64,000 nt of DNA from Nitrosomonadaceae bacterium. GTDB lineage: Bacteria > Pseudomonadota > Gammaproteobacteria > Burkholderiales > Nitrosomonadaceae. The notes under the pieces were generated by a model. That model saw only the letters and a program-made list of their open reading frames with translations. It was not told the origin of the DNA and ran no database searches. Where the stretch lies: the NCBI GenBank assembly GCA_036477105.1, contig JAZGCR010000202.1, positions 33-64,032 on the forward strand. The letters run 5' to 3'. The translations under genes were made by a program, and so were the position numbers. Shown here piece by piece: positions 16,255 through 30,021 of the stretch (positions within the stretch are counted from its first letter, which is position 1; each line of letters opens with the position of its first letter).

Positions 16255-16590
16255 ATGAGTTTAGGTAATGAACAAAGATTGTTCACAAAGATGATTGGTC
16301 TATTAATTGAATGGGCTTATGAAAACGGTTATGAATTGACCTTTGGTGATGCTTTCCGAGATGCGAGAGTGTTTGGCGCTTCCGGTACCAAAGAAGGTTA
16401 TGGTCGTGCATCTTCAAACCACAAGCGACGACTGGCTGTTGATTTCAATTTATTCAAGGATGGCATCTATCTGAATAAAACAGAAGACCATCAGCCCCTG
16501 GGTGAGTACTGGGAATCACTGGGTGGTTCCTGGGGCGGCCGATTCGACGATGGTAACCATTACAGTCTTGAGTACCAAGGTCACCGTTAA
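16255..16590 (+). CDS. endolysin, peptidase M15 (VanY / L-alanyl-D-glutamate peptidase-like)
   Basis: 111 aa with ..SSNHKRRLAVDFNLF.. and ..GGSWGGRFDDGNHYSLE.. (H, D, H zinc ligand pattern of the M15 family). Confidence 0.75.
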   Translation: MSLGNEQRLFTKMIGLLIEWAYENGYELTFGDAFRDARVFGASGTKEGYGRASSNHKRRLAVDFNLFKDGIYLNKTEDHQPLGEYWESLGGSWGGRFDDGNHYSLEYQGHR

Positions 16591-16859
16591 GATAAGGCCC
16601 TGTCTAGGGCATTATCGATGACTGAATTCGCGTAATAGATAGCACCAGCTTCTGAGTCATCTGCTGTTGTGTAATACACAAAACCAGTTATATCTCCTTT
16701 TGGGTGTTCATGCATATTAAGGGGGGTTTCAGTAGCATTATCGTAGTCTTCATATAGCCTATAGTCTGCACAGAAGACCGTATAATATTTATTACCGGTG
16801 GGTGCCAGGCTTGTTCTAAACCGGAGCCTTATTCCTTTGTAATGATAGATGCGTTCCAT
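16587..16859 (-). CDS. hypothetical protein
   Basis: 90-aa ORF convergent with the endolysin gene; first gene of the cargo region; no motif recognised. Confidence 0.45.
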   Translation of the reverse strand: MERIYHYKGIRLRFRTSLAPTGNKYYTVFCADYRLYEDYDNATETPLNMHEHPKGDITGFVYYTTADDSEAGAIYYANSVIDNALDRALS

Positions 16860-17029
16860 GATTTTACAAATCTCGGGTATGTTATTTCAGCGTGGCACAT
16901 GTAACAGTAAAATTTTTACCAGTAATACTGATCCTCCAGCACCGCACAGTACGCTTAGTGATATCAAAAGTATATCAGCTTGTATGAAATTCTTAATGGC
17001 CTTTAATCTTTGAATTGATGTCATAATAT

Positions 17030-19984
17030 CTAAGCAAAATGATAAAGGTTAGAATATATAAGAGCGTTCTCAACAATATCCACATCGTTGGTTCCAACTA
17101 TAGTTACTCTATTATAAAGTTCGTTAGTATAGATTTGACTATCACCATCGTCGTCGTTAAAGACGTTGTAGAGTGTGACTCTGTTTATGCCGTTTGAGAT
17201 CATCAGGAGTGTATTAGTATTGGGGGGTGCCGTTATAGCATCAGATGTATCACCATCATTATTTGGATCGTTTAAGAAATTAGCGAGAGTTGGTATATTA
17301 AAATCGACAATATTATCGTCCACTTTTTGTATCGGGATTGTCGAGAATGCATCAGCTAATTGGATTACATCATCTGCAGTAAAGTCCACGATAAAAGTTG
17401 TATCTGTTTTTTTACTACCAAAAGTATTCAATACAAAAGTATCTAGTCCTATAAATCCCGATAGATAATCGTCTCCACCTCCAGTAATTAATATATCGTC
17501 ACCAGCACCACCTTCAAGATTATCGTCTCCATCAACACCATAAAAACCAGCATCCTGACCAACACCCGGGTAAATTTCATCATTGCTATCTCCAAAGATA
17601 ATATCATTGCCGTCACCACCTGAAATATCGTCAGCACCACCACCCCCTATCAAATAATCATCACCACCTCTTCCATCCATTTCGTCGTAACCATTCAATC
17701 TCCCACCATGCACATGGTTGCTTTCCGAGTTACCAGTGAAATAGTCACTCATTGGAGAAAGTATAATTATTTCAATATTTTTAAAGTAGTCCTGACCAAT
17801 AACATGGGTAACCTCGAAAGAATATATTGTTTCAGAAAGATACCAACCTCCTGTCAGTTTATTATTTTCATCAAGTTGTTCATACACTTCTTCCATATTT
17901 ATATCAACAAATTGATTAACTTCATTTAGCAGAACATCATAACGCAAGTTTAATATATCGGTGCCTTCACCACCGTCGAGCCAGCTATTTCCTATAATTT
18001 TATCGACAATTCCTGAGTTACCGGTAAATATATCATTACCGCCCATTCCATAGCCGATGTAAGCCCCTCCGTAAGTATCTAGGTAATTACTATGCTCGTT
18101 ACCTCTTAGTACACTGATGCCAGGTGCGGTCGCTCCAACTGAGATACCGTAGTAATCGAACACACTGATCGAACCCACGATTTCATCATTCTCATTATAG
18201 AAAAATATTTCTCCAATCTGACCCAGTTCTGAGATTTGCATATCTACACGGAACGATCCTAAAGATTCGCTGTGGAAGCTTATAGTACTTTCATTACGCT
18301 CTTGGCCGATGATGGTTGTCCCGAGCGCAGGTGTTGTCCATACCCATTTGTCATCTACAGAACCGCTAAAGAATTCTAGAGGTTGTTTTTGTAAATAAAT
18401 ATGATCACCAAGAATGTCACCGTTTTCATCGAATATTTCATTTTGCTCGATCCATATATCGCGGGCAAAAGAATTCTGCCCCAGCGTAGATGCACCGTCG
18501 CGGCTAGCTTGTAGAATCATCTCTCTTTCATTGACGCTTGTAATCGATACCCCAGCATCTTGATTTACTGGACCGTGGTTATTTTTGTCCGCTTGATCAT
18601 CGACATGGACTTCTAGCGGTAAATTTAGGGCTTTGTTAATAATAATTGTGAATGTATTTTCAATTTTATATCCATTAATATCCTCAAGAATAAAAGTGAA
18701 AGGTGATATTGTTTTATAAGCGTTATACTCATTGCCTTCAAACCCGGGGATTTGTGTAAATCTCGTATCAATACCCTCATACGCTGCTTGTAGATGAAAT
18801 ACCATTGAGCCAACTTGAGCGTTGAAATTTTGTTGTTGAATAATATTGCCATCGCTATCCATAATTGTCAGGGTTTTTACCCCATCGTCATCATTCCCAT
18901 ATATCGTTAATGAGTTATCAGATGAGTCCCAATCGTAAATAAGATAACCCGCCGTATTAGAGGCTATCGGAGGAGGTACTATCGGAGGAGGTACTATCGG
19001 AGGAGGTACATACTCATCAACGTCTATTACGGATATGGTCAATGTCAGACTGGTTTCATTGTTACTGGCATCTGTGGCAATTACATCAATGGAATAGGAA
19101 TTTCTGGCTTCATAGTTCGGTGATGATATGAATTTTACTATGCCATTATCCTGATCGATTACGAATGAAAGAGCATCATATCCACTGAGTCTATAAGTGA
19201 TTTGGTCTTCTAATTTTTTGTGATTCTCCATCGCCTGTGCATCATAAACAACCGTATGCGTGGGAGAATTTTCCAAAATGGTTACTGTGGTTCCACTGGT
19301 AAAGACTGGCGGTTCCGTATCAGGAAGTACACCCAATGCTACCATCAAATCATTCAGAGCAGTTTGCGTAATGTGCTCAGTTTTCGATGTTGTGTCAAAA
19401 TCGATAATGGAAAAATAGTCATCGATGGCAAATTTATCAGCTGAGTTTTCTCCGCCATATTGATACTCTTTGGCTTTTTCTGGCCCTAGATCAATCAATA
19501 TATTGGTAATAGCATTTGCTACTGCAAGTCTGTTATCTATGGCTAATATATCAGTACTGGCCGGCAATATACCATCAAGAATACGGATAACAATATCCAC
19601 AAACTTTGCTTCACCACTATCGAGTAAACCAACATAAAACTGCATACCTGTGGTGTCAGGAATACGGCCAAATAATTGTTGGTATAATCCGGCAATCAAA
19701 TCACTGTTTGAAAGAGTATTGTAATTATCCTCAAATTCTTGTGATTCAACAAATGCTTGGACAACAAAATCTTTATTGTCTGGATATTTATTGACCCAAT
19801 AATCTAACCCGCCTGGATCTGCTGGGCGTCCATAATAAGCTAAATAAAATAGTTGAATGATGTCAGTATTATTGTTCAAAAAACTATAGCGAACTGATGA
19901 AGTTTCCATGTTGAAATCCATTATCAATATGTGGACTTCTAACAATACGCTTGGATTTTTACCATAAATAGTATCTTTGGACAC
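17030..19984 (-). CDS. large secreted DUF4214 / cadherin-like / RTX calcium-binding repeat protein
   Basis: The N-terminus has YYGRPADPGGLDYW.. (DUF4214 pattern). A cadherin-like segment follows (..YSIDVIATDASNNETSLTLTISVIDVDE), then a PPPIV x3 linker. C-terminal nonapeptide repeats are present (GGGGADDISGGDGNDIIFGD, GGAGDDILITGGGDDYLSG). The start is uncertain: GTG 19984, or ATG 19921 or 19909. Confidence 0.8.
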   Translation of the reverse strand: MSKDTIYGKNPSVLLEVHILIMDFNMETSSVRYSFLNNNTDIIQLFYLAYYGRPADPGGLDYWVNKYPDNKDFVVQAFVESQEFEDNYNTLSNSDLIAGLYQQLFGRIPDTTGMQFYVGLLDSGEAKFVDIVIRILDGILPASTDILAIDNRLAVANAITNILIDLGPEKAKEYQYGGENSADKFAIDDYFSIIDFDTTSKTEHITQTALNDLMVALGVLPDTEPPVFTSGTTVTILENSPTHTVVYDAQAMENHKKLEDQITYRLSGYDALSFVIDQDNGIVKFISSPNYEARNSYSIDVIATDASNNETSLTLTISVIDVDEYVPPPIVPPPIVPPPIASNTAGYLIYDWDSSDNSLTIYGNDDDGVKTLTIMDSDGNIIQQQNFNAQVGSMVFHLQAAYEGIDTRFTQIPGFEGNEYNAYKTISPFTFILEDINGYKIENTFTIIINKALNLPLEVHVDDQADKNNHGPVNQDAGVSITSVNEREMILQASRDGASTLGQNSFARDIWIEQNEIFDENGDILGDHIYLQKQPLEFFSGSVDDKWVWTTPALGTTIIGQERNESTISFHSESLGSFRVDMQISELGQIGEIFFYNENDEIVGSISVFDYYGISVGATAPGISVLRGNEHSNYLDTYGGAYIGYGMGGNDIFTGNSGIVDKIIGNSWLDGGEGTDILNLRYDVLLNEVNQFVDINMEEVYEQLDENNKLTGGWYLSETIYSFEVTHVIGQDYFKNIEIIILSPMSDYFTGNSESNHVHGGRLNGYDEMDGRGGDDYLIGGGGADDISGGDGNDIIFGDSNDEIYPGVGQDAGFYGVDGDDNLEGGAGDDILITGGGDDYLSGFIGLDTFVLNTFGSKKTDTTFIVDFTADDVIQLADAFSTIPIQKVDDNIVDFNIPTLANFLNDPNNDGDTSDAITAPPNTNTLLMISNGINRVTLYNVFNDDDGDSQIYTNELYNRVTIVGTNDVDIVENALIYSNLYHFA
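18966..19010 (-). repeat. 15-nt tandem repeat x3 encoding (PPPIV)n linker
   Basis: atcggaggaggtact occurs three times in tandem on the + strand, with the last copy ending in aca. Confidence 0.9.
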
Positions 19985-29592: not shown

Positions 29593-29604
29593 CAAGGCAA
29601 TAAA

Positions 29605-29934
29605 ATGATGAAATTCATATTAGCAATAATGCTCAGTGTACTAATATTGGGATGCGCTGTTACTAAAGTCCCTGTTGTCATTGGTGGAAGTAGGGCAGAC
29701 GGTACAGTAGACACTATGTATACCTATGGCACCTTACAAAATGTGACAGTGGATATGATACCTACAGACAAAGCAGCATTATCCATATGTAAAAGATGGG
29801 GATATACCGATATAGAACGTTTCCCTTCTGGAACTCGTGAATGTGGTGGCTATGATTACAAAGGGGGTTGCGTAGATCCACAAATCAATCACAAGTATCA
29901 GTGCGTCAATGAGAGTAAATTGTCTAATGAATAA
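29605..29934 (+). CDS. lipoprotein (YecR-like?)
   Basis: It has the lipobox LILGCAV. The pattern ..GGSRADGTVDTMY..CKRWGYTDIERF..C..YQC recalls YecR-type lipoproteins. Confidence 0.55.
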   Translation: MMKFILAIMLSVLILGCAVTKVPVVIGGSRADGTVDTMYTYGTLQNVTVDMIPTDKAALSICKRWGYTDIERFPSGTRECGGYDYKGGCVDPQINHKYQCVNESKLSNE

Positions 29935-29983
29935 TTCATTTTGTAGCTTCTACTTTGGCTAGTTTCCGCACACAAATTTGATA

Positions 29984-30021
29984 GTGTGAATAGGGCACCA
30001 TCCACCATTAGAGGGGTGCCC
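29984..30021 (+). repeat. island motif copy 5 embedded in a hairpin (right island border)
   Basis: In GTGTGAATAGGGCACCATCCACCATTAGAGGGGTGCCC, GGGCACC (29993..29999) pairs with GGTGCCC (30015..30021). Confidence 0.7.

Follow-up and report, generated by a model that had tools for sequence, protein, structure and literature searches.

What is a 13.4-kb block of envelope, secreted and regulatory genes doing in a temperate phage, and for how long has the phage carried it? The question is raised by a stretch of DNA of 64,000 nucleotides (nt), hereafter the window (GCA_036477105.1, contig JAZGCR010000202.1), which is the genome of a temperate myovirus, a circle of 63,956 bp. Positions 16,587–30,021, between the M15 endolysin gene and the leftward early genes, form an island without phage-type genes that makes up 21% of the genome. 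A sequence-only reading had put this cargo at about one fifth of the genome, in agreement with our figure, and had interpreted it as a discrete foreign insertion that converts the surface of the lysogen. We find that the island is an accessory arm of a known general kind, analogous to phage morons and the b region of phage lambda, that is conserved in its lineage and organized in two layers. It probably serves lysogenic conversion and is diversified by the exchange of gene cassettes at a structured repeat, designated R.

The two anchors of the island and the genes of its left part are as follows.

16255–16590, plus strand: M15 peptidase endolysin, left anchor and final late gene (Pfam Peptidase_M15_4, phrog_1768)
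16587–16859, minus strand: orf90, a conserved cytoplasmic protein with no family match, convergent with the endolysin gene and overlapping it by 4 nt
16597–16610, no strand: GC hairpin, terminator-like, at the convergent gene ends (sequence scan)
17030–19984, minus strand: RTX1, an exoprotein with an N-terminal Pfam DUF4214 domain, one Cadherin domain and HemolysinCabind repeats (RTX beta-roll)
19985–20234, no strand: AT-rich intergenic region between RTX1 and the divergent gene string from the GerE-type regulator to the receptor, with presumed promoters (sequence reading; promoter-like matches are no more frequent than in shuffles)
20235–20465, plus strand (alternative start 20220): stand-alone GerE/LuxR-type helix-turn-helix (HTH) regulator of 76 amino acids (Pfam GerE, 1.5e-15)
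20596–21141, plus strand: lipoprotein of 181 amino acids with the lipobox LTGC, just upstream of the receptor gene (N-terminus reading)
21192–23711, plus strand: TonB-dependent outer-membrane receptor (TBDR) of 839 amino acids (Pfam Plug 4e-20, barrel 5e-33)
23737–24321, plus strand: TetR-family regulator (Pfam TetR_N)
24524–24790, plus strand: IS3-OrfA-like HTH protein of 88 amino acids, without OrfB (Pfam HTH_Tnp_1)
30245–30832, minus strand: J-domain protein, right anchor and first of the leftward early genes (Pfam DnaJ, phrog_9210)

The inventory of the sequence-only reading stands: all the cargo genes that it listed are present at their positions, as judged by Pfam matches and by signal-peptide or lipobox reading, and the matches to PHROGs in the island are generic (HTH, transposase, and one family of unknown function on the TBDR plug). 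Signal peptides, lipoboxes, membrane helices or RTX repeats are found in every product except orf90 and the three DNA-binding proteins, namely the GerE-type HTH, TetR and OrfA-like HTH proteins. Gene orientation is mixed, with orf90, RTX1 and a second exoprotein, RTX2, on the minus strand. The suspected AT-richness was borne out by windowed GC content, which is 41.3% in the island and 45.2% elsewhere; this is the fifth lowest value among 640 sliding windows of 13.4 kb, within the lowest 1% of the circle. Composition is uneven across the island, from 47.9% in the TBDR gene to 38.2% in RTX1. The reading as a defence island was rejected for want of any PADLOC match in the ten proteins scanned (nine of the island plus the flanking o140; the TBDR, the GerE-type protein, the outer-membrane barrel and the 45- and 52-amino acid products were left out of this set).

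Related phage contigs with a cargo block were found in other assemblies, and are listed here with their contents.

L041/L042 (ENA ERZ23498510 and GCA_030632845.1): baseplate, endolysin, orf86 (minus strand), RTX protein of 1,081 amino acids (minus strand), GerE, TBDR (80% amino acid identity), other cargo, TetR, small open reading frames (ORFs), J-domain gene
L044 (GCA_044240325.1): left part like that of L041; the contig ends short of the right anchor
L053 (GCA_044343285.1): left part like that of L041; the contig ends short of the right anchor
L052 (GCA_044240405.1): both anchors flank 5.4 kb with an orf90-like gene, a DUF4214 protein, GerE, an outer-membrane barrel, o169 and TetR; no TBDR
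L039 (GCA_044230885.1): TBDR (84% amino acid identity), outer-membrane barrel, YecR, CsrA, then AlpA, a tRNA/tmRNA-like attP and an integrase; L040 (SRR17063062) is a near-identical, shorter version

The left junction (endolysin/orf90/RTX) recurs in L041/L042, L053, L044 and L052, and the right junction (cargo to J-domain gene) in L041/L042 and L052. At the nucleotide level, window 16237–17088 matches L041 5548–6389 and window 30023–30832 matches L041 19331–20137. A misassembly at about 16.6 and 30.0 kb, which would have undone the sequence-only reading, is contradicted by the recurrence of both junctions in independent assemblies. The source is a metagenome assembly, and an assembly chimera, with a false circle made of phage contigs fused to chromosomal ones, would explain the lower GC content and the host-like genes; because both junctions are reproduced on contigs of at least five other assemblies, with sequence conserved across them, such a chimera has next to no probability.

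Hairpins are found at both borders of the island, and the one on the right, GGGCACC...GGTGCCC at 29993–30019, encloses a repeat core as had been described. Comparison with relatives defines a border on this side, where similarity to L041 resumes at 30023. By contrast, the left edge is a conserved junction rather than an insertion border, because orf90 has a 4-nt overlap with the endolysin stop and recurs in four relatives. The notion of a discrete foreign insertion with two borders had to be given up: the left part is inherited with the backbone, and the right part alone turns over, cassette by cassette. What holds of the earlier interpretation is that a temperate phage carries a large envelope and secreted block, on the arm that separates the late genes from the candidate attP, and that it is not chimeric. 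Across the six phage contigs the site is fixed and the content variable, as is characteristic of morons (accessory genes). The relatives draw on a common pool of cargo genes in shuffled order, and the size of the island ranges from 5.4 kb in the TBDR-less L052 to 13.4–13.7 kb in the window and L041. In L039, the island directly adjoins the attP-like site and the integrase.

Conservation extends from the anchors into the left part. The endolysin shares 81–84% amino acid identity with its homologues in L041, L053 and L052, and the J-domain protein 85–86% with those in L041 and L052. For orf90 the identity is 67% in L041, L044 and L053 and 50% in L052, for the GerE-type regulator 49–51% in L041 and L052, for TetR 46–62% in L041, L044, L053 and L052, and for the OrfA-like protein 57–58% in L044 and L053, where its gene also lies beside TetR. 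Full-length relatives of RTX1 were found solely in related phage contigs, and share 56–58% identity in the N-terminal third and 31–33% in the centre. The orf90, TetR and OrfA-like genes are constrained, with ratios of nonsynonymous to synonymous divergence (dN/dS) of 0.14–0.29, including 0.20–0.25 for orf90. The OrfA-like gene had been called an IS3 orfA remnant; it is instead a conserved neighbour of TetR in two relatives, with a dN/dS of 0.29 against L044. An IS3 element or a decaying copy of one was ruled out, as there is no orfB, R follows directly after the stop codon, and orfA is conserved under purifying selection. The name LuxR solo proved equally inapt for the GerE-type regulator, which consists of the HTH alone (76–81 amino acids) and has no ligand (autoinducer-binding) domain. 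In L042 and L044, a called ORF of 45 amino acids separates the RTX gene from the orf90 homologue (window equivalent 16860–17030).

The TBDR, whose nearest database relatives are located on other phage contigs, shows 78–85% amino acid identity in four related phages. Between phages, its dN/dS is 0.06–0.11 at a synonymous divergence (dS) of 0.8–2.2, which is saturated; the baseplate J (wedgeJ), endolysin and J-domain genes have values of 0.05–0.08 and 0.9–2.6, respectively. Purifying selection has thus acted on the receptor as it diverged with the backbone. In a maximum-likelihood tree built from 36 TBDRs, five phage copies group with one short-contig copy in a single clade (100/100 support). 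The sister of this clade is the copy L054, flanked by insertion sequences (IS), followed by L045 on a conjugative element and L055 on plasmid-like DNA, with chromosomal genes of Halieaceae farther out. TBDRs of these marine bacteria (Halioglobus, Parahaliea) match at 61–63% identity over the full length, plug and barrel, and differ from the phage-borne receptor, which has a clade of its own with nearest neighbours on IS-flanked, conjugative and plasmid-like DNA. A scan of public genome contigs for homologues gave distant matches only, at ≤44% identity, and the best match in 50,697 deposited phage records is at 28%, mostly in records of doubtful purity. By tree and divergence, the TBDR is an old, selected phage gene.

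Had aberrant excision recently picked up host DNA, as happens in specialised-transducing genomes, such a block would be placed in the attP-side arm, where the island lies, and chromosomal TBDR relatives of 66–75% identity do occur beside transposases. We consider this origin very improbable, however: between the island and the attP candidate lie about 4 kb of phage genes, the island genes recur in related phages with backbone-like divergence and in a single phage clade, and no close chromosomal copy was found, the best non-phage match of the TBDR being at 75%. The island is neither a misassembly nor a fresh capture of host DNA.

The nearest non-phage elements of the tree carry companions of the receptor. 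L045 (ENA ERZ25766962), a contig of 274 kb, holds a TBDR of 70% identity on a conjugative element with a TrwB/TrwC relaxase module, CsrA and SutA. L055 (GCA_044240345.1) holds one of 67% identity on a plasmid-like contig with ParA, ProQ and SutA. A DUF4214 protein is located near the TBDR in both, and an outer-membrane barrel near it in L055, so that the trio of TBDR, DUF4214 protein and barrel moves on several kinds of mobile element. DUF4214 is also fused to an astacin-like peptidase in L041 (15829–17519) and to an M4 thermolysin-like peptidase in L053 (1774–3813), which suggests that the domain is a shared surface-anchoring or export-related tag of the cargo. Based on the co-travel and the fusions, a functional link is anticipated between secreted DUF4214 proteins and uptake by the receptor.

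The genes of the right part of the island, and the full or partial copies of R among them, are as follows.

24798–24889, plus strand: R, the sole full-length copy of the window, ~92 nt with four helices (nhmmer and cmsearch, 103 bits)
24950–27232, minus strand: RTX2, an exoprotein with a DUF4214 domain and weak RTX repeats (Pfam), N-terminal paralogue of RTX1
27413–27946, plus strand: eight-stranded outer-membrane barrel of the OmpA/OmpX type with a signal peptide (Pfam OMP_b-brl, OmpA_membrane; N-terminus)
28049–28186, plus strand: exported peptide of 45 amino acids (called in the source record; signal-like N-terminus)
28259–28294, plus strand: remnant of the R 3' core, 14 nt upstream of the start of the 52-amino acid gene (repeat search)
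28309–28467, plus strand: membrane protein of 52 amino acids (called in the source record; N-terminus reading)
28464–28489, plus strand: remnant of the R 3' core, overlapping the stop of the 52-amino acid gene and 13 nt upstream of the next start (repeat search)
28503–28871, plus strand: exported Trp-rich protein of 122 amino acids (N-terminus; no family match)
28898–29572, plus strand: exported protein of 224 amino acids (N-terminus; no family or PDB match)
29562–29592, plus strand: remnant of the R 3' core before the YecR start (direct sequence reading)
29605–29934, plus strand: YecR-like lipoprotein (Pfam YecR 1.6e-12; lipobox)
29985–30021, plus strand: R 3' core enclosed by the GGGCACC/GGTGCCC hairpin; it forms the right border of the variable region (repeat search)

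The hairpin repeat of the right border is therefore the 3' core of a longer element. Profile and covariance searches recovered 15 full copies of R in five islands (one in the window, five in L039, four in L041, three in L044 and two in L053) together with shorter 3' cores. All copies are oriented as the neighbouring cargo genes, and most of them, whether full copies or cores, have their 3' end 13–23 nt upstream of a ribosome-binding site (RBS) and ATG. No copy was found in the 38 IMG/VR loci, the conjugative element or the chromosomal loci searched, and the 22–25-nt core has no exact match in public genome, viral and metagenome contig collections.

An alignment of 13 R sequences from four contigs supports four helices (RNAalifold and pair counting): P1, GGGGAG/CUCUCC; P2, GCAGCAG/UGUUGCU; and two hairpins. 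Pairing is intact in 93.6% of the cells of the alignment, compared with 46–62% when the partners are slid, and compensatory changes occupy 9 cells, a number reached by none of 500 shuffles. Almost no variation is seen in the junction strands CAAUA and GAAUAGGGCA. As many as 61 of the 295 paired cells are G.U pairs, so that only the mRNA-sense strand of R can fold. R may act as RNA, in the form of a leader, processing or stability site, as DNA, in the form of a recombination joint, or both. Inspection of R reveals no evident sigma-70-like promoter (TTGCTG is followed after 17 nt by ACCATT, which agrees at 2 of 6 positions), and no T-run follows the helices. A scan of R in the window, L039 and L041 with Rfam 15 (cmscan, E ≤ 1) returned no match, and identity with a known ribozyme or riboswitch was rejected on this ground.

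The role of R in the turnover of the right part is best seen in L044 and L053, the closest pair of relatives (87–92% nucleotide identity in shared blocks). Their homology passes through R, the RBS and the ATG, and ends 4–5 nt inside the ORF. The unrelated ORFs o430 (430 amino acids) and o289 (289 amino acids) are each located between two R copies; one gene has been replaced by an unrelated one, with R on both sides.

This arrangement is shared with the promoter early stem-loop (PeSL) cassettes of the hyperplastic regions of T4-type phages, in which a short conserved stem-loop motif lies directly 5' of unrelated ORFs (PMC2839356, PMC4122927). PeSLs bound insertions, deletions and replacements between close relatives, and homologous recombination at the motif has been proposed as the driver (PMC2839356, PMC4122927). 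R likewise is a conserved motif 5' of unrelated ORFs that bounds changes between close relatives, and PeSLs are its nearest described counterpart. There are differences as well: the phage of the window is an unrelated myovirus and temperate, R has a greater length (~92 nt) with four helices and G.U pairs specific to one strand, no promoter was recognisable in it on inspection, and the cargo comprises host-type envelope genes instead of small early ORFans.

Integron arrays also resemble the right part, in that co-oriented ORFs are split by a structured repeat of 60–140 nt (attC) that recurs in unrelated contexts. The spacing of R, however, is fixed to the downstream start codon and not to the upstream ORF. 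R has no R''/R' core sites, its consensus has no RYYYAAC or GTTRRRY boxes on either strand, and no IntI is present; the sole integrase (34235–35323) lies outside the island and not beside it. Identity of R with an integron attC site was ruled out on the absence of core sites and IntI. The same observations bear on the view that the right half is an autonomous cassette system, with integron-like site-specific recombination at R or R as a mobile repeat of the type of a miniature inverted-repeat transposable element (MITE), and not a product of passive homologous exchange. Such a system would account for the ORF–repeat–ORF layout in one orientation, the strong conservation of R amid unrelated flanks, the replacement between two R copies, and the sequence of YecR followed by R or an R remnant (window, L044) or by a weak R-like match (L039/L040, E 0.97). 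Against it speak the missing boxes, the distance of the phage integrase (4 kb) in the absence of an adjacent IntI-type enzyme, and the lack of terminal inverted repeats and target duplications in a repeat of single orientation; a genome-wide MITE is in addition hard to reconcile with a core that finds no exact match in the three public collections. We regard autonomous mobility as distinctly unlikely. Under the preferred reading, namely passive exchange within an accessory arm, R or its 3' core would provide about 90 nt of homology ahead of the RBS of many right-layer genes, and the ERF/YqaJ recombinase of the phage could act on this homology to drive cassette turnover. YecR genes are also found in the islands of L039 and L044.

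The block as a whole conforms to the Juhala/Hendrix concept of the lambda b region and of phage morons (reviewed in PMC3594210): it would be a non-essential accessory block between the tail and lysis genes and attP, has a lower GC content, encodes envelope products (an OmpX/Lom-like barrel, lipoproteins), and varies in content among relatives. It departs from this model (PMC3594210) in being much larger, at 21% of the genome, with a TBDR of 839 amino acids and RTX/DUF4214 exoproteins of 760–984 amino acids, in being partly vertical under purifying selection, and in having cassettes punctuated by a conserved structured repeat. The unusual features are the size, the vertical inheritance of a TBDR and a cadherin-RTX exoprotein, the recurrent DUF4214 tag on secreted cargo, and a new structured repeat at the cassettes.

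The explanation that we favour, and hold to be probable, is that of a moron arm for lysogenic conversion. The arm would lie on the stretch that separates the late operon from attP, at the position of the lambda b region. Its left layer, inherited with the backbone, would comprise orf90, the DUF4214/cadherin/RTX exoprotein, usually the GerE-type regulator, and the TBDR with its TetR regulator, and its right layer small cassettes that vary from phage to phage. Expressed from the prophage, the outer-membrane proteins, lipoproteins, secreted proteins and regulators would refit the surface of the lysogen; the exoproteins would exit by a type I system of the host and serve as adhesins, and the TBDR would import a substrate for the lysogen. 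Of the functions considered, conversion of the lysogen's envelope has the most support, and may reasonably be inferred from the predicted localisation of the products, as read from signal peptides and lipoboxes.

Several observations weigh against this explanation. A scan of the island for consensus promoters and terminators found no more sites than in shuffled sequence, which leaves the independent transcription that defines a moron unproven. The phage carries no type I secretion genes. The TBDR scores far below the cut-off of every NCBIfam equivalog, and its best score against the named subfamilies (siderophore, B12, haem) is 83 bits, compared with a cut-off of 583. Covariation in R is modest (four pairs, with 9 cells changed on both sides, among the 13 aligned sequences), and the R-bounded breakpoints come from one closely related pair.

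TBDRs are often the receptors of phages, and phage lipoproteins such as Llp of T5 block them. The cargo could accordingly serve the phage and not the lysogen, with receptor and lipoprotein replacing or masking the receptor of competitor phages (superinfection exclusion) and the cadherin/RTX proteins acting in infection or on the virion. The location of the island directly after the tail-fibre and lysis genes, the lipoprotein gene immediately upstream of the TBDR gene, and the fast divergence of the RTX1 centre relative to its N-terminus all accord with this. On the other hand, transcription of RTX1 and orf90 runs opposite to that of the late operon, the lipoprotein is missing from the relatives, no structural PHROG is matched, and the trio of TBDR, DUF4214 protein and barrel is also found on conjugative and plasmid-like elements. 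A phage-serving role is in our estimate unlikely.

A more far-reaching proposal is also compatible with the data, and is offered as a tentative one, clearly less likely than the moron arm. R would represent an undescribed class of structured cis-elements that define mobile gene cassettes in the cargo arms of temperate phages. It would combine an mRNA leader, conferring common translational or stability control on unrelated envelope genes, with a recombination joint, as the temperate-phage counterpart of attC and the T4 PeSLs. The lineage would thereby assemble a nutrient-capture kit from DUF4214-tagged exoproteins and a vertically inherited TBDR.

Regarding the individual products, the RTX repeats of the exoproteins suggest type I export, and RTX1 and RTX2 look like adhesins and not hemolysins. 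RTX1 scores 47 bits against the NCBIfam RTX_toxin model (cut-off 1000), to which the repeat block alone aligns, and its PDB matches are restricted to RTX repeat blocks and cadherin domains. A pore-forming RTX toxin or hemolysin was ruled out, as only Ca-binding repeats and no full-length match are present. The paralogy of RTX2 is supported by P0128, with 45% amino acid identity over 18% of RTX1. The TBDR has the signal peptide and the aromatic C-terminal end (...YDF) of its family. For the 181-amino acid lipoprotein no family or PDB match was found, nor any counterpart in the relatives.

The remainder of the window is phage backbone. The source record measures 64,082/64,083 bp and bases 1–44 of the window are identical to 63957–64000, from which a circle closed by an overlap of ~127 nt is deduced. 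Family matches identify neck, sheath, tape measure, hubs, wedges and a Mu-gp48-like baseplate protein at 0.2–15.7 kb. The leftward early block at 30.0–42.4 kb encodes the J-domain protein, a C5 methylase, the tyrosine integrase, a single-stranded DNA-binding protein (SSB), YqaJ, ERF and a cI-like repressor, and terS (P22 gp3 type) and terL are located at 49.4–51.3 kb. The order of elements is endolysin, island, 4 kb of small genes, the tRNA-like core and the integrase, the attP core being a candidate assigned by sequence reading.

34113–34140, plus strand: candidate attP core GTTCGAGTCCCGTCCGGTCCGCCA, resembling a tRNA 3' end (sequence reading)
34235–35323, minus strand: tyrosine integrase (Pfam Phage_integrase)

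The core consists of a TTCGAGT loop, the T-stem CCCGT, the acceptor strand CCGGTCC, G and CCA, and is located 95 nt past the integrase stop. This is likely the attP core, suggesting that the phage integrates at a tRNA gene. L039 has a tRNA/tmRNA 3'-end-like sequence beside its integrase (15137–15179), likely its attP, and a tRNA-like sequence between cargo genes (8380–8451; Rfam tRNA, 30.1 bits with a gathering score of 29).

Megablast of backbone and island against the deposited phage records returned a single match, of 46 nt in the endolysin. For the J-domain protein (phrog_9210), IMG/VR contains 36 relatives with 41–66% amino acid identity, and several prophage-derived contigs carry the gene no more than a few kb from their end. 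These 36 loci, and two found through gp48, are distant mosaics with no island genes and no R. The start of terS (49380–49472) is a run of a 12-nt repeat of the AAGCC/AAACC type that encodes a low-complexity N-terminus rich in Lys, Pro and Ala. Direct repeats of 77–79% identity at 10379–10436/11441–11498, in a wedge protein of 1,018 amino acids, and at 60803–60880/61142–61219, in a protein of 1,137 amino acids, indicate duplicated domains in these two large virion proteins. The host is probably a marine-type gammaproteobacterium, because the named homologues belong to Halieaceae, Oceanobacter and Halomonas.

The accessory arms of temperate phages are commonly viewed as a grab-bag of recent acquisitions. 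If the explanation proposed here is correct, this lineage has kept a secreted adhesin and a large outer-membrane transporter under purifying selection for as long as the tail genes, in a setting where TBDRs are otherwise almost absent (50,697 deposited phage genomes searched). The lineage would then depend on altering the surface or the nutrient uptake of its host. R would provide a testable handle on how accessory arms are rebuilt, and may also be a new regulatory RNA.

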